Virus record (IMG/VR): IMGVR_UViG_3300005805_005733
Span: 1 to 29,293 of that record
DNA: 29,293 nt
Reading direction: 5' to 3' (one strand)
Source of the DNA: a virus
Taxonomy: Duplodnaviria > Caudoviricetes
Below are positions 392 through 21,599 of this stretch, in pieces. Positions within the stretch are counted from its first letter, which is position 1. Each line of letters opens with the position of its first letter. The translations under genes were made by a program, and so were the position numbers. The notes under the pieces were generated by a model, which saw only the letters and a program-made list of their open reading frames with translations, searched no databases and had not been told where the DNA came from.

Positions 392-1507
392 CTACCGAAT
401 AATGTCAATCTCTTTTTCGCCTGTCCAGACTTCGATCTCTGTCCTAAGTCTATTCTCAGTCTTTAAGGTTTCAAATCTGTTAATGGCTTTCTTTCTCCAC
501 CACTCAATTATGTTTTTCAAATGAAACTTTTCATAGTTTTCTCCAGCAACCAGTTTAGTTGTTTTTCCATTAACAAAGTCAACCATGTTGTTAAACCCAT
601 AATCTGAAACATAGTAACGTTTTTGTTCATTCAGATTCTTTGCATTTTCTATGGTCTTTTTAAACTTGACACCTTCTGGTGTACCTTTCAATGCAACATT
701 GATGTGTGACACCATGGCATTTGATATCTTTAGTTTACGACTAGATGCGCCTTCTGGTGCGAGTGGTTCACCAATAATTTCTTCCATATATTCTTTTAGT
801 TCGGTGTATGTTTTACCGTGTAACATAGGAAGAAAATCACTATCAGTCAAACCTTTATAACGAATATAAGGTTTCATGCCATCATATTGTGATACAGCTT
901 TAGTTGAACCGTATAAACTTGTTGTCTCAAACAAACAAGTTGTCATGTTATATTTCTTGTTCAACATTTCACGTACTTCATGTGTGGTACAAATCGCAGC
1001 CATCAATTTGCCACCGAGATAATTATAACCAAATGGTTGTGCAGGTACAATAACAAAACCCATGATAGCACATCGATTAAACAACTGTGCGCCACCTTCA
1101 GTTTGAGTAAACACTTGACCCAACATTTCGTTTCTAGGTTTACAGTTAATTACTGGCGAACCTAGTCTAATAAAACCACACCATTTATTTGTTGTGGTTT
1201 CCAATACAGCCAACCTCAAACAACGACCAGGAATACTTGTCATGTTTGAGTGAGAAGATATCATGTTCAAATAAATGTCCCACTTTTCTTGCGAAAGTTC
1301 GACAACTTCAAAGTTCATTTTTTCTGGCGACAGTGTAAAATCGGAGAACAAATCATCTTCAGGTCCCATACCGAAAAGTGTTGGTGACCTCTCTGACATA
1401 GATGACAACTTTTGTTCACGCATGTATTCATCTATTCTTTCAAACCTATCAAAATAGTTTGAGAATACATTTGCACAATAAATTGCTTGATCTTTATTCA
1501 AACTCAT
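392..1507 (-). CDS. DUF4338/DruA-like protein (putative GNAT-like fold), paralog 1
   Basis: 371 aa; motifs IVPAQPFGYNYLGGKLMA, ETTSLYG and SQYD are shared with 20322..21599. Start overlaps the gp41 stop. Confidence 0.65.
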   Translation of the reverse strand: MSLNKDQAIYCANVFSNYFDRFERIDEYMREQKLSSMSERSPTLFGMGPEDDLFSDFTLSPEKMNFEVVELSQEKWDIYLNMISSHSNMTSIPGRCLRLAVLETTTNKWCGFIRLGSPVINCKPRNEMLGQVFTQTEGGAQLFNRCAIMGFVIVPAQPFGYNYLGGKLMAAICTTHEVREMLNKKYNMTTCLFETTSLYGSTKAVSQYDGMKPYIRYKGLTDSDFLPMLHGKTYTELKEYMEEIIGEPLAPEGASSRKLKISNAMVSHINVALKGTPEGVKFKKTIENAKNLNEQKRYYVSDYGFNNMVDFVNGKTTKLVAGENYEKFHLKNIIEWWRKKAINRFETLKTENRLRTEIEVWTGEKEIDIIR

Positions 1508-7582: not shown

Positions 7583-7888
7583 TTAAACGAGTTTTGATGC
7601 GATTTGAATTCCTGAACCGAAGATTTGATTGTATTGGTTTTCCAACTCAACCACTGGAGTATTGATGCACAAAATATCTGATTTACTGAGTTTAATTCCT
7701 ACTTTAAACTCCTTACTATATTCTAGATAAGGAGAAAAAGCAATACCACCTTGGTCAGTTTGTGAACGTGGAGGTACAACAACTACTTGTACTGGTTCAC
7801 GAATTGTGACCGTTTCAAAATCATCATTTTCGGTTACTGATCCGATAAGTGTTTGATTTGTTTTGAATGTGATTAGTTTAACAGCCAT
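7583..7888 (-). CDS. Hypothetical protein (possible Sm-like beta fold, T4-like core neighbour of gp43)
   Basis: 101 aa ORF abutting gp43; beta-rich pattern. Confidence 0.7.
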   Translation of the reverse strand: MAVKLITFKTNQTLIGSVTENDDFETVTIREPVQVVVVPPRSQTDQGGIAFSPYLEYSKEFKVGIKLSKSDILCINTPVVELENQYNQIFGSGIQIASKLV

Positions 7889-7893
7889 TATAC

Positions 7894-8127
7894 TTAAACC
7901 TCCATTTTCGAATCATATACTTCGAGGGTTAACCAACGTTTTGGAAACAACATTTCTCTACCCTCAAAATCCTTCATATCATATGTAGGGTCATCAACAA
8001 GACCAATTAGTTCTACCATGTCATCATAATCACGGTAGAACAAATCATACTTGTATGCTTTAGGGATATTTTTATTTGTTTCTACAAGTTTTTTAATTAC
8101 TTCATTCATTGTATTGATGCCTTTCAT
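7894..8127 (-). CDS. Hypothetical protein
   Basis: 77 aa ORF in an operon with 4-nt overlap. Confidence 0.65.
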   Translation of the reverse strand: MKGINTMNEVIKKLVETNKNIPKAYKYDLFYRDYDDMVELIGLVDDPTYDMKDFEGREMLFPKRWLTLEVYDSKMEV

Positions 8128-8495
8128 TTTTTAACAAATTTACTAAAGTCAGGAGGTTTCCACCCTTCAGGCTTTAAAACTTTACCATCTTCACGCTTCA
8201 AAACTTTCAGTGTTGCCTTATCAATTTTTTTAAGATTGCTTAGGGCACCTTCATCCCATATTCTTTCACAACTCCAACCTCTCGATAACATATACCCAAC
8301 AATAACCCATATTGTATCAAAACACGCATCGATTGTCAATACATCATCATTTAATTGCCTGGCTTCTTTAAATTCCTTTTCGTATTCTTCCTCAATGAGT
8401 TTCAAGTACAATTCTGCCTGTTGTGGATTGTCTTGATTGATAGTTTGCCCAGCAGCAGTCATAAATGTTGCCACATCTGTAAAAACTTTTGTCAT
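8124..8495 (-). CDS. MazG-like / all-alpha NTP pyrophosphohydrolase
   Basis: LIEEEY..E, IDACFD, SNLKK, REDGKVLKPEGWKPP pattern typical of this phage family. Confidence 0.8.
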   Translation of the reverse strand: MTKVFTDVATFMTAAGQTINQDNPQQAELYLKLIEEEYEKEFKEARQLNDDVLTIDACFDTIWVIVGYMLSRGWSCERIWDEGALSNLKKIDKATLKVLKREDGKVLKPEGWKPPDFSKFVKK

Positions 8496-8941
8496 GATTT
8501 TTCCTTTTCGTAAACTCTTTTACGCAATTCTGTTGAGCTGAATCTATGACTTCTGGAATTATAGTAAGTTCTTATTCCTCTACTATCACAAATATCTAAA
8601 CCAGTTAAAGGTTTGTCTTTGTATTCTACACCACAAATTCGAATAGTTATAGGAAGAAACATCAATAAATCTTCCAAATCTTTTTCATTTTCATAAACCA
8701 CAATCTCATCAACAAATTTTACGGCTGATAGTTGAACATATCTCTCAACTACAGACTGTATCGGTTTATTTTTTACTGTGGGTCTATCAATTGTTGGATC
8801 AGTTTGTAAACCAACGATAAGGTAGTCACATATTTGTTTACATTCGGCAAGCATCAATATATGACCTGCATGAAGTAAATCGAAGGTTGAACAGGTAAAT
8901 CCTATTGGTTTACCCATCATATCATCAGGTATGCATAACAT
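8492..8941 (-). CDS. Cytidylyltransferase (glycerol-3-phosphate cytidylyltransferase-like)
   Basis: FDLLHAGH (HIGH motif), LIVGLQTD, RFSSTELR. Confidence 0.88.
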   Translation of the reverse strand: MLCIPDDMMGKPIGFTCSTFDLLHAGHILMLAECKQICDYLIVGLQTDPTIDRPTVKNKPIQSVVERYVQLSAVKFVDEIVVYENEKDLEDLLMFLPITIRICGVEYKDKPLTGLDICDSRGIRTYYNSRSHRFSSTELRKRVYEKEKS

Positions 8942-8950
8942 ATTTTTCTT

Positions 8951-9385
8951 TCACTCTATATTCAATATTTTAACACCACATTTTTCTAAAAAATTTATAC
9001 CATCATCATTTCTATAAACATTTTTATAGAAAACTCTAGTAATTCCAGATTGGTGTATTAATTTTGCACAGTCTAAACAAGGCGCATGAGTTACGAACAT
9101 ATAAGAACCTTCAGTAGAATTTGTAGACCTAGCAACTTTAGAAATAGCATTTGATTCTGCATGAATTACTTCTGGTTTAGTTTTTAATGTAGGTATATCA
9201 CCTTCAATTGGTGTAGTTAAATCTTCACATCGATTAGTCCAACCAGATGGCATACCATTATAACCAATACCTATAATTGTATCGTCTTTTACAATTACAG
9301 CACCTACCTTCAGTCTCTTAGCCGAAGAAAGTTCCGAATATACTTCAGCAACTTTCATGTGGGCTAAAATGAACTTGCGCTTCAT
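8951..9385 (-). CDS. cd: dCMP deaminase
   Basis: VGAVIVKD, GYNG, HAESNAI, PCLDC zinc motifs. Confidence 0.93.
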   Translation of the reverse strand: MKRKFILAHMKVAEVYSELSSAKRLKVGAVIVKDDTIIGIGYNGMPSGWTNRCEDLTTPIEGDIPTLKTKPEVIHAESNAISKVARSTNSTEGSYMFVTHAPCLDCAKLIHQSGITRVFYKNVYRNDDGINFLEKCGVKILNIE

Positions 9386-13674: not shown

Positions 13675-14238
13675 ATGATTATTTATCAGATAACCAACAC
13701 AATCACTAACGATATTTACGTTGGTAAAACCACTCAACCAAAGAAAAGATTTTACATTCATAAGTATAACGCAATCAACAACAAAAGTGCGGCACATATT
13801 CATCGTGCAATGAGGAAATATGGCATAGAAAACTTCCAATTTTCCGTAATAGAAAAAGTTGAAAAATCAGAACTACTCAATGAGCGTGAGATTTTCTGGA
13901 TAGAACAACTAAAACCAAAATATAACATGACAAAGGGCGGTGATGGCGGCGATACTTCAAATTCTCCAAATTATAAACTAGGTATAAAAAATAGAGATCA
14001 ATCTGGTAGTAAAAACGGTATGTATGGCAAAAAAAGGCCTGATACCGCAACTTATTTATTTGAGGCTAAAGACAAAATGATTAAAGCCAATAAATGTCCC
14101 GTTTCTTGCGAAGGTAAATTTTACGATTCGGTTGGCGAAGCGCAAAAAGCATATCCAGGAATTAGTATCAGAAAAAGATTAGATAGTGAAATTTATCCAA
14201 CCTTTTTCAGATTAAGACCTAAGACCACTAGAATTTAA
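13675..14238 (+). CDS. Free-standing GIY-YIG homing endonuclease (Seg-like) with NUMOD3-like motif
   Basis: IIYQITN..YVGKT, R, catalytic E (REIFWI), YNMTKGG, SGSKNGMYGKK; the only credible plus-strand gene, inserted between gp45 and gp44. Confidence 0.9.
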   Translation: MIIYQITNTITNDIYVGKTTQPKKRFYIHKYNAINNKSAAHIHRAMRKYGIENFQFSVIEKVEKSELLNEREIFWIEQLKPKYNMTKGGDGGDTSNSPNYKLGIKNRDQSGSKNGMYGKKRPDTATYLFEAKDKMIKANKCPVSCEGKFYDSVGEAQKAYPGISIRKRLDSEIYPTFFRLRPKTTRI

Positions 14239-14935: not shown

Positions 14936-15271
14936 TTATTCATCAACAGAATACATTATATCATGTTCATATAGAAACATGAGGCAACAAAGCGCATGAG
15001 CTAAGTGGTGTTTACCAGATTCAGGATCATCTTTCTCACCTTCTTTCCATGCCCAAATATGCCTTTGTAATGCATCGAAATATCTACGTTTAGAATCTGG
15101 CACATGTTTCCAATTATCAGGTTCATATTTTTCTGCACCAAAAGTTAATACATCAACTGTTGCTTTGAGAGCTTGTGGTGGAAGTAAACTATATTGTAGT
15201 TTACCTCCATCAAACTTACGACCACCGGTCGTTGCAGTTTGGCTTTTTATCACTTCTCTTGTGATTGCCAT
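14936..15271 (-). CDS. dATP/dGTP diphosphohydrolase-like protein (DUF5664 type)
   Basis: GRKFDGGK...LLP, GAEKY..DNW, ALQRH, DPESG.HHLAHA. Confidence 0.85.
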   Translation of the reverse strand: MAITREVIKSQTATTGGRKFDGGKLQYSLLPPQALKATVDVLTFGAEKYEPDNWKHVPDSKRRYFDALQRHIWAWKEGEKDDPESGKHHLAHALCCLMFLYEHDIMYSVDE

Positions 15272-17847: not shown

Positions 17848-20112
17848 TTATACCGCAATACCATCAATAAATTTTGAAACCAAAACCCGATTCACTTGCC
17901 GTTTTTTATTGTATTTCAAAAAAGCAGTAGTCAATTTTGTTGCGGTAATCTTTTTAGTTTCATCAATTTCAAGTTCACCGTCATCAATCTGCAAATTATT
18001 GCCGCCTGGTACAATGAAAAAGCTTTTAAACCCTGGTTTTTTCGACAATAGAAACTTTTCTTTTTTCAATTTCTTTATTAAGACACTTGCGGCTTCTTTT
18101 CTTTCATGGTAGTTTTCGATTCTTTCATAGAAGTTTTTGGTTTCATTTTCAGTATAGAAATTTTTACAAATAGCACCATTCATACTGGAGGCATTTTCTT
18201 CTGTTATAAAGAAACCAAAAACATTTGCGCCAGTTTTTTGTTTATACCATTTCAAAACAGAAGAATTTAAAGTATCATGTTCCAACTTATCTTCAAAATG
18301 AATTTTATTGTCACGAAGTACAACATTAAAATAATTTGTTGCAAACCTACCAATTAAAGGTGAACCGTCATCATCGTGGCCAGTATGATAATGAGATAGT
18401 CCATCTGCATCACCATCATGAACAATCACCAAGTTTACAATATCCAAATTATTTACTTTTCTAAACTCTTGTGTGATTGCTTCAGTAGCAACAATAGCTT
18501 CAGTCAGAGGTGTATTTGACAAACCTTCTGCAGCAGGATAATCATTATCATATCTATATTTTCGACCAAATCCATTCATCAAACAAACCATATTTTTTAA
18601 AGCATTGTTGAATTCAGCATTACTCATTCTTGAATTAATATATTCTCTAAGGAATACAGCATTCATATGAAGATCACCAACTTTGTGTTTGAAGAAACTA
18701 TCATTCTCAACGATATCATCGGTTTCTTTATCGATATAATAACCACCGGTATTATTTCCAAACCCATAAACTGAAAAAGGAATATTTACTTTTCTACAGA
18801 ACATAGCCAAAACTAAAATTTGTTCAATAGACCCTTTCAGATTATTTGACATTGACCCAGATTTGTCTAGAAGCAAAATCAAACCATGAGATTTGCCTTT
18901 AGGTATTCTCATCATTTTTTTGAAAATAGAGTCATCAAATTTATATTTGTAAAGTTTCGATACGTCAATATCTCCCGTGTTTGAAGTTTTAGCTTTCGCA
19001 TAGCAAGAAGCCGCCTTCTTCATTTCAAATTCTTTGGCCAGCAAAGAAATGAATCGTTCATTTTTTCTTTTAAAACTATTCAACAAATCATTTTTATTTG
19101 AATAGTAAGTATAATGATCTGTCAAAAGTGTTTGTACACGAGCTGCTGGCGTAATAATATTTTTCAGAACGGGAGTAGGCAAAGTAAGATAGATATATTC
19201 TTTACACTTTTCATCGAGCAGAGTATTTTCATTCATACGAAACGCATCATCTGTTTCGCAGAATGGTTGAAACATATCTTTGTTTGCTAGAGTTGATTCC
19301 TTATTTCGATTCACCGAAAAAGATTCACCTTCTTCTTTATTTTCTTCATTTGATTCGGTGTCAAATTTATTAGAACTACCAAAATCTTCACCTTCTTCAC
19401 CATTTTTTTCAGATCGAGAAAATGATTTTCCATTTTTCTTTGAATCATCAGAATCGAAACCTTCTTCAGATTCTTCAAATTCAAATTCATATTCACCATT
19501 TTCATCAAATTCGAATTGATCGAAATCTAATTCTTGTATCATTTCAAACTGTTCATCTTTGGAATAATCCCAAACAAGACCAGTAACACGTAAAACATCT
19601 TCCCAAGTTTCACAACGCATAACTTCTTCTACAAGATTTTGTTCAAAACCAGTAAAAGTAATATCAATAGTTCCAGAAGATTTTGTGAAAAGGTTCAATC
19701 GATTAATGAAGGACATTTTATTGAGGTCTTTACCTTTAACCTCAAAGAAATTTCTTTCCATCAATTCATTGTAAGCAGTAACAAAAGACCTACGAATACC
19801 AGGATACTTTCGTTTTATTTTTTTCTCAATGCGAGCATCTTCAATAACATTCAAAAATGATTTATAGTTTTTGCCCTTGTCGCAAACGGCATCATGCCAA
19901 CCTTGAGCAGGAGTGTACAAAGCGTGACCCACTTCATGACCCATCAAAAGATCATAAAGTGTTCCCGACATATCTTTCCATATAGGACAATATAAAACCC
20001 GATTCTTTGGATCGAATCGGGCTGTACGAATCTTTTGATGTTCAATTCGCAAGTTTTCGGTGGCAAGGAGTTTTGCCAATTGCGACTTGGTCTCTGCGGT
20101 AAAAGTTGTCAT
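17848..20112 (-). CDS. CobT-like protein: N-terminal HExxH metallopeptidase-like domain, acidic linker, VWA domain (likely start ATG 20112)
   Basis: GHEVGHALYT, NVIEDARIE, MIDAS DKSGSM, NTPL.EA, HDGD; adjacent to the CobS-like AAA. Confidence 0.85.
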   Translation of the reverse strand: MTTFTAETKSQLAKLLATENLRIEHQKIRTARFDPKNRVLYCPIWKDMSGTLYDLLMGHEVGHALYTPAQGWHDAVCDKGKNYKSFLNVIEDARIEKKIKRKYPGIRRSFVTAYNELMERNFFEVKGKDLNKMSFINRLNLFTKSSGTIDITFTGFEQNLVEEVMRCETWEDVLRVTGLVWDYSKDEQFEMIQELDFDQFEFDENGEYEFEFEESEEGFDSDDSKKNGKSFSRSEKNGEEGEDFGSSNKFDTESNEENKEEGESFSVNRNKESTLANKDMFQPFCETDDAFRMNENTLLDEKCKEYIYLTLPTPVLKNIITPAARVQTLLTDHYTYYSNKNDLLNSFKRKNERFISLLAKEFEMKKAASCYAKAKTSNTGDIDVSKLYKYKFDDSIFKKMMRIPKGKSHGLILLLDKSGSMSNNLKGSIEQILVLAMFCRKVNIPFSVYGFGNNTGGYYIDKETDDIVENDSFFKHKVGDLHMNAVFLREYINSRMSNAEFNNALKNMVCLMNGFGRKYRYDNDYPAAEGLSNTPLTEAIVATEAITQEFRKVNNLDIVNLVIVHDGDADGLSHYHTGHDDDGSPLIGRFATNYFNVVLRDNKIHFEDKLEHDTLNSSVLKWYKQKTGANVFGFFITEENASSMNGAICKNFYTENETKNFYERIENYHERKEAASVLIKKLKKEKFLLSKKPGFKSFFIVPGGNNLQIDDGELEIDETKKITATKLTTAFLKYNKKRQVNRVLVSKFIDGIAV

Positions 20113-20140
20113 TTGGATACCTTTTCTATCGTATAAGGAT

Positions 20141-20169
20141 ATTATAACACAGGAAAAAGGAAAAGTCAA
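20141..20169 (-). promoter_or_regulatory. sigma70 promoter with extended -10
   Basis: TTGACT-N17-TATAAT with TGTG before the -10. Confidence 0.8.
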
Positions 20170-20212
20170 GCCGTTGTTTTTTTAACAACTGTTGCTAATT
20201 TGATAACATGGG

Positions 20213-20275
20213 TGGAGCGGATAAGAGGAGTTAAACCTCTCTACCTGCGGGGGCAGGCTGTCTCGGACTCTCCGC
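20213..20275 (-). ncRNA. Minimal, non-canonical tRNA-Gly-like RNA (63 nt, encoded CCA)
   Basis: GCGGAGA-GTCCGAGACA-GCCTGC CCCC GCAGGT-AG-AGAGG TTTAACT CCTCT-TATCCGC-T-CCA. It has an acceptor stem, U73, a T arm with 7-nt loop, a reduced D region and a C-rich anticodon-like loop. Confidence 0.75.
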
Positions 20276-20287
20276 ATTTCAGATACA

Positions 20288-20316
20288 ATTATATAGGAAC
20301 TTTCTTGAATTGTCAA
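20288..20316 (-). promoter_or_regulatory. Perfect sigma70 promoter driving the tRNA-like RNA
   Basis: TTGACA(20311-16)-N17-TATAAT(20288-93); predicted start a few nt before G1 at 20275. Confidence 0.85.
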
Positions 20317-20321
20317 GCGTT

Positions 20322-21599
20322 TTATCGACCTACTTGCGGCAAATATTTTTCTTTTGTTTCTTCCCAGCTCAAGAAACACAAGTCATCATAGAATAGTGTA
20401 TCGTAAGACACTTTATTCTTTTTTGCCAATTGTTTAATTCTTGGTTTGGCATGCTTACTCTTCCAAATTTCTACCAAAGATTCGACACTGGTATCAAATA
20501 ACTTATTCATATTTTTTCCATCATGATCGCCACGTAAAAATTCACAAGACTTATCATATAACGGAGAAAAATAAATTCCTCTAGCATGTTCAGAACGAAT
20601 CAATTCTTTTGGTATGTTTAACTGTGTGTATGTAAAATTTAAAGATCGATTTTTATGATCTCTTTTATGTGGTTGTCCAGAAGGTTTCTTTGCAACATAC
20701 CATTCAAAATATTTTCTCGTATGATTCGTTTTTAACCACTCACGTATCATATATCTAGTATCCGTCAAAGGTTCAAAAGAAACTGATCCAGAAGTGAATC
20801 CCATCGGCAGCCAATGATCTAGATTATCATACTGTGATAATCCACCAGCTTTTGTTTTACCATATAATGATGTAGTAGTTACAGATACTAATTTATCACC
20901 GTAAAGTTTTTCCCACAACTGCTGCACCGGATCGGACAAACATAGTAATGCAAGCAATTTGCCACCAACATAATTATAACCCAAAGGTTGTAAAGGGACG
21001 ATTGTTGATCCTATAGCTGTATGATTAATCATACCACCTTGTGTTTTCAATTCTCTCGACCAACCAATAAAGTTATCTCTTGGTGTCAAATCCAAAAAGT
21101 CGGAACTAATACAGATAACGCCAAGATATTTTTTACTTATCTTGTCACGAACTATGAAATTTAAATTACGACCAATATTTGAGTTGTTCTTCATCGTAGA
21201 AGAAAATGTTCGTATAGTATTCCATAATTCTGGTAGACCATCTTCTTTATTTGTATAAATCAACTCTGGTTGTAGATTTAGATAATCATCGGGTGATGTA
21301 GGTATCCAAAAATTATTTTTAATCTCTTCAATCGACCTTCTTTGGTCATCGTCTATGAGAACTTTCTTTTCACCTTCCCATAGGTCGTTGACCAACATCG
21401 TAGGATATTTTTCTTGAACCTCACACCACTTTTGAAACAGTGTGTATTCTTTAACATCCATACCAGATACATACGTGAGTTCTTTTATAGTTTTCTCACG
21501 TAGATGATCGACATCTATATTTTGATATTCAATACCAGAGTTTTGCCATTTATTCCACTGGGATTCAACATCATCTTTAGGATCAAAACTATACGGCAT
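20322..21599 (-). CDS. DUF4338/DruA-like protein (putative GNAT-like fold), paralog 2
   Basis: 425 aa; GRNLNFIV.D, IVPLQPLGYNYVGGKLLA, TTTSLYG, SQYD. Confidence 0.7.
   Translation of the reverse strand: MPYSFDPKDDVESQWNKWQNSGIEYQNIDVDHLREKTIKELTYVSGMDVKEYTLFQKWCEVQEKYPTMLVNDLWEGEKKVLIDDDQRRSIEEIKNNFWIPTSPDDYLNLQPELIYTNKEDGLPELWNTIRTFSSTMKNNSNIGRNLNFIVRDKISKKYLGVICISSDFLDLTPRDNFIGWSRELKTQGGMINHTAIGSTIVPLQPLGYNYVGGKLLALLCLSDPVQQLWEKLYGDKLVSVTTTSLYGKTKAGGLSQYDNLDHWLPMGFTSGSVSFEPLTDTRYMIREWLKTNHTRKYFEWYVAKKPSGQPHKRDHKNRSLNFTYTQLNIPKELIRSEHARGIYFSPLYDKSCEFLRGDHDGKNMNKLFDTSVESLVEIWKSKHAKPRIKQLAKKNKVSYDTLFYDDLCFLSWEETKEKYLPQVGR

Follow-up and report, generated by a model that had tools for sequence, protein, structure and literature searches.

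The window analyzed here is a stretch of 29,293 nucleotides (nt; positions 1 to 29,293 of IMG/VR record IMGVR_UViG_3300005805_005733), a 29-kb fragment of a T4-like phage whose genes lie nearly all on the minus strand. Between its gene for a 425-amino-acid (aa) DUF4338/DruA-like protein and its gene for a CobT-like "peptidase" lies a 63-nt RNA with a cloverleaf fold, a glycine-type acceptor end and an encoded CCA, which appears unfit for decoding. What is new is the module that this RNA forms with the DUF4338 gene in T4-like phages from lakes and oceans, and its features suggest a glycine-carrier role for the RNA. In the direction of transcription, the locus reads as follows.

20322..21599, minus strand: 425-aa DUF4338/DruA-like protein with a GNAT-fold core, the proposed partner of the RNA (Pfam, PADLOC, structure model)
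20288..20316, minus strand: sigma70-type promoter TTGACA-17-TATAAT (consensus match 12/12)
20213..20275, minus strand: 63-nt tRNA-Gly-derived, non-decoding cloverleaf RNA (sequence, minimum free energy (MFE) fold, family alignment A1, covariation)
20173..20189, minus strand: weak hairpin GUUGUU-AAAAA-AACAAC, 24 nt 3′ of the CCA (sequence reading and relatives)
17848..20112, minus strand: CobT-like "peptidase" with its own promoter, downstream of the RNA, with CobS next

Read 5′ to 3′, the RNA is GCGGAGA GUC-CGA-GAC A GCCUGC-CCCC-GCAGGU AG AGAGG-UUUAACU-CCUCU UAUCCGC U-CCA, with G1 at position 20275 and U73-CCA encoded at 20216..20213. Its acceptor stem (GCGGAGA/UAUCCGC) has the seven positions of a canonical tRNA, followed by a discriminator and CCA, despite one mismatch, G6·A67. 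The D arm is reduced to 3 base pairs (bp) and the 3-nt loop CGA, without the elbow residues G18 G19, and the T loop, UUUAACU, lacks the canonical T54-Ψ55-C56 of the elbow. The anticodon arm closes to the 4-nt loop CCCC; opening of the C-G pair would widen it to 6 nt, and this sequence cannot form a loop of 7 nt. The T stem contains A49-U65, G50-C64 and A51-U63, so that weak A-U-type pairs occupy positions 49-65 and 51-63, as in the non-proteogenic tRNAGly of Staphylococcus aureus, which has A49-U65, U50-A64 and A51-U63 and binds EF-Tu weakly (PMC7826273). An earlier note, made from the letters of the window alone, had described paired stems with a single G-A mismatch in the acceptor, a D arm of GUC-CGA-GAC, a C-rich anticodon loop of 4-6 nt, UUUAACU in place of the usual T loop, and T-stem pairs of the type associated with weak EF-Tu binding. 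All of these are present in the sequence, and the last remark agrees with the S. aureus work; the encoded U73-CCA end, the sigma70 promoter and the module with the DUF4338 gene had escaped it. Folding of an 81-nt stretch returns the cloverleaf as the MFE structure (−24.7 kcal/mol, z = −2.88), and 1 of 200 shuffled sequences was equally stable. The note's suggestion that standard scanners may miss the RNA held as well, since ARAGORN reports 0 genes in the window and Rfam gives 0 matches at the gathering score and no tRNA match even at E ≤ 10. A DNA similarity search of the element against the phage collection returned nothing beyond chance-level matches of 20-33 nt.

The RNA has its own promoter. 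G1 lies 46 nt behind the DUF4338 stop codon and 12 nt from the end of its −10 box, and a −10-like box was seen by eye 7-12 nt 5′ of G1 in every relative inspected. On the 3′ side, a terminator scan of the window made no call at the weak hairpin; relatives carry at this position a terminator-like hairpin, CUGUUGU...ACAACAG, which in L029 and L030 is a clear hairpin followed by a U run. The weak hairpin is probably the end of the primary transcript of the RNA. We note separately that the motif CUGUUGU-loop-ACAACAG recurs 5′ of many TTGACA promoters in this phage group, where it looks like a common early terminator or punctuation signal.

Homologous RNAs were collected in two ways. A scan of IMG/VR with two end motifs found 119 stretches, from which about 390 are estimated for the whole collection, chance matches included; it yielded 129 matches with 89 distinct sequences, many of them by chance, and ARAGORN called 0 of these 89. 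The detection patterns demanded ends of the form GCGG...CCGCTCCA, and none of them demanded a CC in the loop. Homologous RNAs were also revealed upstream of the CobT-like gene in loci anchored on that protein (37 loci). Among 185,579 species genomes of bacteria and archaea, the core pattern of the window's form had 0 matches. Among the pattern matches, those of 59 nt in proviruses (L081, L090, L104, L143, L145 and others) and many with high GC content or on the reverse strand of a tRNA were set aside by eye as probable chance. A match to the Mom family was not found at the 59-nt provirus set, a negative of little weight because the control gave no match anywhere either.

Alignment A1 holds the window's form, 63-66 nt long, in 25 distinct sequences (24 besides that of the window). 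The cloverleaf is paired in 91.4% of its cells, compared with 81.8% in shuffles, and covariation among homologs, a check named in the earlier note, reaches a score of 0.277 versus 0.095 for shuffled alignments, with 0 of 500 shuffles as high and slid controls at 0.009-0.065. Two-sided changes occur in 8 of the 21 pairs, and compensatory changes are seen in the T and anticodon stems as well as in the acceptor. At the position that closes the anticodon loop, 23 of the 25 sequences pair, 13 by C-G and 10 by U-A, and acceptor pair 5-68 is U-A in 15, A-U in 9 and C-G in 1. Because each state of the closing pair occurs with both U-A and A-U at 5-68, the CCCC or CCCA tetraloop is itself maintained. 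Other parts hardly vary: the D arm GUCCGAGAC is nearly invariant, the T loop reads UUUAACU in all but one of the 25 sequences (UUAAACU), and the G6·A67 mismatch is retained in 24 of 25. In the T stem, 49-65 is A-U in 21 and U-A in 4, and 51-63 is A-U in 24 of 25, with a variable pair between them (50-64: C-G 13, G-C 9, A-U 2, U-A 1). Mean pairwise identity over the 25 sequences is 86.5% for the RNA and 66.5% and 61.9% for the 63-nt flanks, and on these alignments the family is judged to be under purifying selection.

In a second form (alignment A3; 11 sequences of 67-68 nt), the acceptor has 6 bp, the D arm is GUG-AUAG-CAC, the T arm is short, and a middle stem of 8-9 bp carries a C-rich loop of 5 nt. 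Here 97% of cells are paired, double changes occur in 13 of 21 pairs, and all 9 pairs of the anticodon (middle) stem covary. Additional variants measure 66, 67 and 69 nt, and a pelagiphage form measures 74 nt. In the latter, the loop with the anticodon ACC has 7 nt, the D loop contains no GG, and the T loop is GGCAGUA or AGCGUUA. When 47 distinct CCA-ended sequences were folded (46 variants and the canonical tRNA-Gly of L042), the loop of the middle hairpin carried CC in 47 of 47, and in most forms this loop is 4-5 nt long. A UUCRANY T loop is found in 0 of the 46 variants, and the D- and T-loop elbow residues are missing from all forms.

Several individual cases are of interest in their own right. 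L154, a locus of 668 nt, carries two distinct tRNA-Gly-like mimics of 68 and 69 nt. L126 contains at 301-372 a 72-nt CCA-ended RNA whose acceptor is of the Gly type, whose T arm is the canonical GGUUCGAAUCC and whose middle loop has 5 nt; this RNA sits in a His/Tyr/Pro tRNA cluster of a 109-kb viral contig, receives no call from ARAGORN, and may be another, independent closed-loop tRNA. In the pelagiphage Mosig, the "hypothetical protein" Mosig_000011 (MT647606.1 7774-7869; L204 975-1070) overlaps a 74-nt tRNA-Gly(ACC)-like RNA at 7779-7852 on the minus strand and is probably an RNA gene misannotated as a coding sequence. The counterpart in pelagiphage HTVC008M (KC465899.1 91140-91213) is unannotated.

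The bacterial glycine identity set consists of U73, G1-C72, C2-G71, C35 and C36 (PMC9976931, PMC7826273). The window RNA has G1-C72, C2-G71, G3-C70 and U73, which are invariant in both A1 and A3, where the search patterns demanded these ends. A CC, the putative counterpart of C35 and C36, lies in the loop as well, mostly within 4-5 nt rather than 7 nt. The RNA is a tRNA-Gly derivative that is retained alongside true glycine tRNAs: G003, a complete 169-kb relative, carries the 68-nt form along with 34 tRNA matches that include tRNA-Gly(GCC) and tRNA-Gly(UCC), whose ends, GCGGAUA...UAUCCGCUCCA and GCGGGUA...UACCCGCUCCA, match those of the mimic. In L042, L059 and L103, the mimic lies between a tRNA-Thr and a canonical tRNA-Gly(UCC). 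On this genomic evidence, the mimic is not the working tRNA-Gly of the phage.

Co-occurrence with the DUF4338 gene was assessed in the 37 CobT-anchored loci, which were picked regardless of the RNA. The query spanned 17848-20124 (758 aa) and began 4 codons ahead of the probable ATG start, which left the matches unaffected. Two loci lack upstream DNA, so that 35 are informative: 27 have both the DUF4338 gene and the RNA, 2 have the gene without the RNA, 6 have neither, and 0 have the RNA without the gene. RNAs with exactly the ends G1-C72, C2-G71, G3-C70 and U73 are found at 27 of the 29 DUF4338-positive loci, and their starts lie 23-73 nt behind the gene. The window-form loci found by pattern show the same arrangement, with a DUF4338 gene that is nearly always directly upstream of the RNA and is far better conserved (62-97% identity) than the CobT-like gene. 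In G012, the gene is followed by the RNA at a distance of 73 nt. The gene is also retained where the RNA lies elsewhere, as in G006, G007 and G009, in which the RNA is in a tRNA cluster with the gene about 7 kb away on the same contig, and in the pelagiphages Mosig and HTVC008M, in which the gene is about 4-6.5 kb from the RNA. DUF4338-negative relatives (G004, 95% complete, and the fragments G010, G011 and G013) have a canonical tRNA-Gly at most. From these gene arrangements, we conclude that the RNA and the DUF4338 gene form a module.

Two variations on the arrangement were seen. About 550 nt separate the DUF4338 gene from the RNA in L045, L057, L100 and L101, and this spacer may be an inserted small gene. 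In both pelagiphages, the slot behind DUF4338 (L199 4197-4331; L200 3617-3752) is occupied by a different hairpin, GCUGUGCGA..., short and conserved, instead of the tRNA mimic, and in Mosig a MazG gene is interposed between DUF4338 and the GCUGUGCGA... hairpin.

The protein partner matches Pfam PF14236 at 1.2e-18 (67.7 bits against a cut-off of 27), its sole Pfam match at E ≤ 10, and the PADLOC DruA models at 6.3e-17. Its homologs number 3716 at E ≤ 1e-3 in 90% clusters and 901 as representatives at 50%. No published function for DruA/DUF4338 was found in open-access papers and bioRxiv. All fold results rest on one AlphaFold model (pLDDT 75, pTM 0.73, alignment of 13 sequences), in which residues from about 107 to 369 form a GNAT core. 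When the model was compared with the whole PDB by Foldseek, Mom of phage Mu (8bv8_B) ranked first (E 1.3e-3, probability 1.00, TM by target 0.52), and VIA-align again placed 8bv8_B first (Z 10.5, root-mean-square deviation 3.8, 166 of 202 residues aligned). The best named cluster in the ESM Atlas was "GNAT-phage-like" (PF22559, 0.83), below the level at which that tool gives more than a lead. A cyanophage homolog that matches the same PHROG and Pfam families was labeled "methylcarbamoylase mom" by its depositors. The model gives firm grounds for a GNAT fold; that the protein is Mom-like is a lead, drawn from the rank of the modeled structure, the cyanophage annotation and the RNA neighbor. The window contains a second gene of this family.

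392..1507, minus strand: DUF4338/DruA-like paralog, 371 aa (PF14236 at 1.1e-09), adjoining a gp41-like helicase

The tight module with an upstream DUF4338 gene of predicted GNAT fold points to a glycine-carrier role. Our preferred reading, which we hold to have somewhat less than an even chance of being right, is that the RNA is a ribosome-excluded glycyl carrier dedicated to the DUF4338 enzyme, comparable to the non-proteogenic tRNAGly of Staphylococcus. The transcript would be trimmed by RNase P at its 5′ side and by 3′ exonucleases to give G1...CCA, and host glycyl-tRNA synthetase (GlyRS) would charge it with glycine. Its closed loop, its lack of an elbow and its weak T-stem pairs (49-65 and 51-63) would exclude the charged RNA from EF-Tu and the ribosome, and the DUF4338 enzyme would take the glycyl ester from it. 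By the Mom analogy, the target would most plausibly be phage DNA, and it could be another acceptor. Such a carrier would have evolved from tRNA-Gly through closure of the anticodon loop and loss of the elbow, and being private, it would separate the reaction from translation, a point of possible importance in hosts that, like SAR11/LD12, are streamlined and grow slowly. The wider proposition, that a ribosome-excluded glycyl-carrier RNA and a DUF4338 GNAT that draws on it for glycylation of phage DNA or another target form a module in T4-like phages with SAR11-type or freshwater hosts, is put forward a little more tentatively still. No described equivalent of the module was found in open-access papers and bioRxiv.

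Several observations weigh against a dedicated glycyl carrier. Conservation of the RNA ends is partly built into the sample because the detection patterns required GCGG...CCGCTCCA, and reading of C35 and C36 by GlyRS within a tetraloop is predicted at most. GlyRS of Thermus thermophilus also uses core residues (PMC9976931), which are altered in this RNA. On the protein side, confidence in the AlphaFold model is middling (pLDDT 75 from 13 sequences), the Foldseek E value of 1.3e-3 for Mom narrowly misses 1e-3, and about 50 ordinary acetyl-CoA GNATs follow at Z 9.7-8.8, less than 1 Z unit behind Mom, which by the rule of the tool is a tie. Sequence comparison provides no link either, in that hhalign gives DUF4338 a probability of 1.1% against Mu Mom and 0.2% against the Mom profile, phmmer finds 0 matches in the PDB, and a profile search returned one chance-level row (E 0.68). 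Most GNATs use acyl-CoA, which makes dependence of the 425-aa protein on a tRNA conjectural. As to the module, no RNA lies near the gene in L032 and L034, where the CobT-like promoter comes directly after the stop codon, and adjacency is not universal, since some lineages keep the RNA kilobases from the gene. The 27 positive loci hold 14 distinct RNAs on contigs that are related, partly redundant and mostly fragments, and the association is for this reason strong without being a tally of independent events. The 371-aa paralog is of the cyanomyophage type, which includes a protein annotated "methylcarbamoylase mom"; no tRNA-like RNA adjoins the paralog, and neither it nor the cyanophage homologs has such an RNA partner. 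In the one cyanophage genome searched, the pattern matched a canonical tRNA-Gly only.

Among other explanations, the one that survives best, while still unlikely, is that the RNA serves as a decoy or sponge and captures a host defense enzyme directed at the acceptor end or the anticodon region of tRNA-Gly, for example, a TacT-like GNAT toxin, which acetylates Gly-tRNAGly, a toxin that modifies the CCA end or an anticodon nuclease; an RNA of no use to the ribosome could take such damage at no cost. The most strictly kept features (U73, G71, CCA and the CC loop) are those that such enzymes read, and the specificity of TacT is for U73 and G71 (PMC9976931). The consensus promoter of early type would suit a counter-defense product, and the fold is unable to decode. 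However, a decoy leaves the tight, persistent pairing with DUF4338 unexplained, a defense system that targets tRNA-Gly is not known for the likely hosts, none having been examined, and the covarying pair that closes the anticodon loop would remove the usual substrate of an anticodon nuclease.

Less probable again is a processing signal or a stable tRNA-like RNA of the T4 RnaC/RnaD type, with the cloverleaf acting mainly as a site for RNase P or 3′ maturation that shapes adjacent transcripts, or as a stable RNA whose role has nothing to do with glycine. The tRNA cluster of T4 contains stable RNAs that end in CCA and have no known role, and variants of the present RNA lie inside tRNA clusters in other lineages. 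In L048, L053, L062, L065 and L121, a promoter precedes the variant and an open reading frame (ORF) comes next, with its ATG about 20 nt away and no terminator, and a U stands immediately 5′ of G1 in all copies listed. A mark for cutting, however, needs only a mimic of the acceptor and T arm and not U73, G1-C72, C2-G71 or a CC loop on a covarying stem, and the RNA in the window has its own promoter, with the next gene a separate one.

We consider it improbable that the RNA is a base-pairing small RNA (sRNA) whose C-rich loop pairs with G-rich sites, such as Shine-Dalgarno sequences, in host or phage mRNAs and whose tRNA shape provides stability only. C-rich loops that target ribosome-binding sites are known from Gram-positive sRNAs, and this loop is the single internal feature common to all variants; however, it is just 4-5 nt long, the Gly-specific acceptor end and CCA are conserved equally with it, and there is no link to any target, no target search having been made.

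An unusual decoding tRNA-Gly, comparable to armless mitochondrial tRNAs, is very improbable. It best fits the 74-nt pelagiphage form with its 7-nt loop and ACC anticodon; ARAGORN calls the HTVC008M copy tRNA-Gly(acc), and L132 has a 7-nt loop, UCACCAA. Against this, the window's form cannot make a 7-nt loop and its closing pair covaries, the elbow residues are missing in all forms, canonical tRNA-Gly genes coexist with the mimic, ARAGORN leaves the Mosig copy uncalled, and tRNAscan-SE gives HTVC008M 0 tRNAs in Table 1 of PMC7029224. A decaying, functionless tRNA-Gly pseudogene, which would account for a score below that of every tRNA detector, is scarcely credible for an RNA kept across dozens of diverged phages with its promoter retained, and decay is disfavored because both forms covary and conservation exceeds that of the flanks. 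The claim of the earlier note that the RNA is not decayed and looks built to avoid translation is supported by this conserved family (86.5% identity compared with 62-66% in the flanks), its compensatory changes and the coexisting canonical tRNA-Gly(GCC) and tRNA-Gly(UCC), whereas the decoy, primer and processing-signal functions that it also proposed have gained no specific support.

The remainder of the window encodes UvsY, UvsW, gp46/47-like proteins, a late sigma factor, gp45, gp44/62, RegA, DNA polymerase, UvsX and gp41. The same DNA is present in 20 DNA runs from lake, freshwater and crustacean-associated metagenomes, with no RNA run listed. The closest isolates by protein are the Pelagibacter phages Mosig and HTVC008M, and the hosts of isolated relatives are SAR11/LD12. 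The start of the CobT-like gene is most likely the ATG at 20112..20110, which has an AAGG ribosome-binding site; the TTG at 20169, which gives the longest ORF, is probably not the start, and the ATG is preferred. Other genes include the following.

14936-15271, minus strand: dATP/dGTP diphosphohydrolase N-terminal domain (PF18909, 1.2e-35)
8124-8495, minus strand: MazG-like PRA-PH
8492-8941, minus strand: cytidylyltransferase-like
8951-9385, minus strand: dCMP deaminase
13675-14238, plus strand: GIY-YIG endonuclease between the clamp-loader and sliding-clamp genes

Taken together, the first four, which concern the nucleotide pool, are a hint that the phage alters the base composition or modification of its DNA. 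The GIY-YIG gene is the sole sizeable plus-strand gene of the window and probably encodes a homing endonuclease.

Outside the ribosome, charged tRNAs serve cell walls, lipids, protein tagging and antibiotics, to which phage DNA hypermodification by Mom was added in 2023-2026, and to the best of our knowledge, the tRNA is supplied by the host in all viral cases so far described. If the carrier reading is true, the RNA would be the first virus-encoded private aminoacyl carrier, and a virus that brings its own shuttle for activated glycine, one that translation cannot drain, would represent a new strategy. The family is abundant (the estimate of about 390 stretches includes chance matches) and invisible to standard tRNA finders, and the reading can be tested directly in HTVC008M and Mosig, two phages cultured on Pelagibacter HTCC1062. 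Small stable tRNA-like RNAs are familiar from T4, whose RnaC and RnaD (species 1 and 2) undergo tRNA-like processing and have no known role. We know of no glycine identity or linked enzyme reported for either, and both are about twice as long as the RNA described here.

The closest precedent for the RNA is the NP1-NP3 set of tRNAGly in S. aureus, which serves FmhB, FemA and FemB, shares a tRNA-Gly origin and A49-U65/A51-U63 T stems with the phage RNA, is charged by the normal GlyRS through G1-C72, C2-G71, U73, C35 and C36, and serves an aminoacyl transferase of the GNAT type outside the ribosome (PMC7826273). Those RNAs are, however, full-size, with normal 7-nt anticodon loops, and still detectable as tRNAs, whereas the phage RNA is virus-encoded and 63 nt long, with a closed tetraloop, a D arm of 3 bp and 3 nt, and a UUUAACU T loop, and its charging and glycyl transfer are predicted only. 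For the protein, the nearest comparison is Mu Mom. This enzyme takes glycine from Gly-tRNAGly and attaches it to N6 of deoxyadenosine in double-stranded DNA, with a subsequent rearrangement that gives 6-NcmdA; it accepts all three Escherichia coli tRNAGly isoacceptors and not Gly-tRNAAla, and its authors suspect that the enzyme reads the 3′ acceptor end (PMC13219725). The likeness lies in the predicted GNAT fold of a phage enzyme, with Mom, which takes its glycine from a tRNAGly-type acceptor end, as the top structural neighbor of the modeled DUF4338 protein. The differences are that Mom belongs to PF25680, has about 240 aa and shows no detectable sequence similarity to the 425-aa protein, and that Mu brings no carrier RNA and uses the host isoacceptors. 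In PMC13219725, whose supplements list mined homologs, the main text has 0 mentions of DUF4338, DruA or a tRNA-like RNA. With DruA of type I Druantia, finally, the neighbor gene shares its matches to PF14236 and to the PADLOC DruA models; it differs in being phage-encoded, in having no DruB-E partners in the window and in being paired with an RNA gene. Were the carrier reading to hold, this pairing would provide the first functional handle on DUF4338/DruA, including the DruA of Druantia defense.

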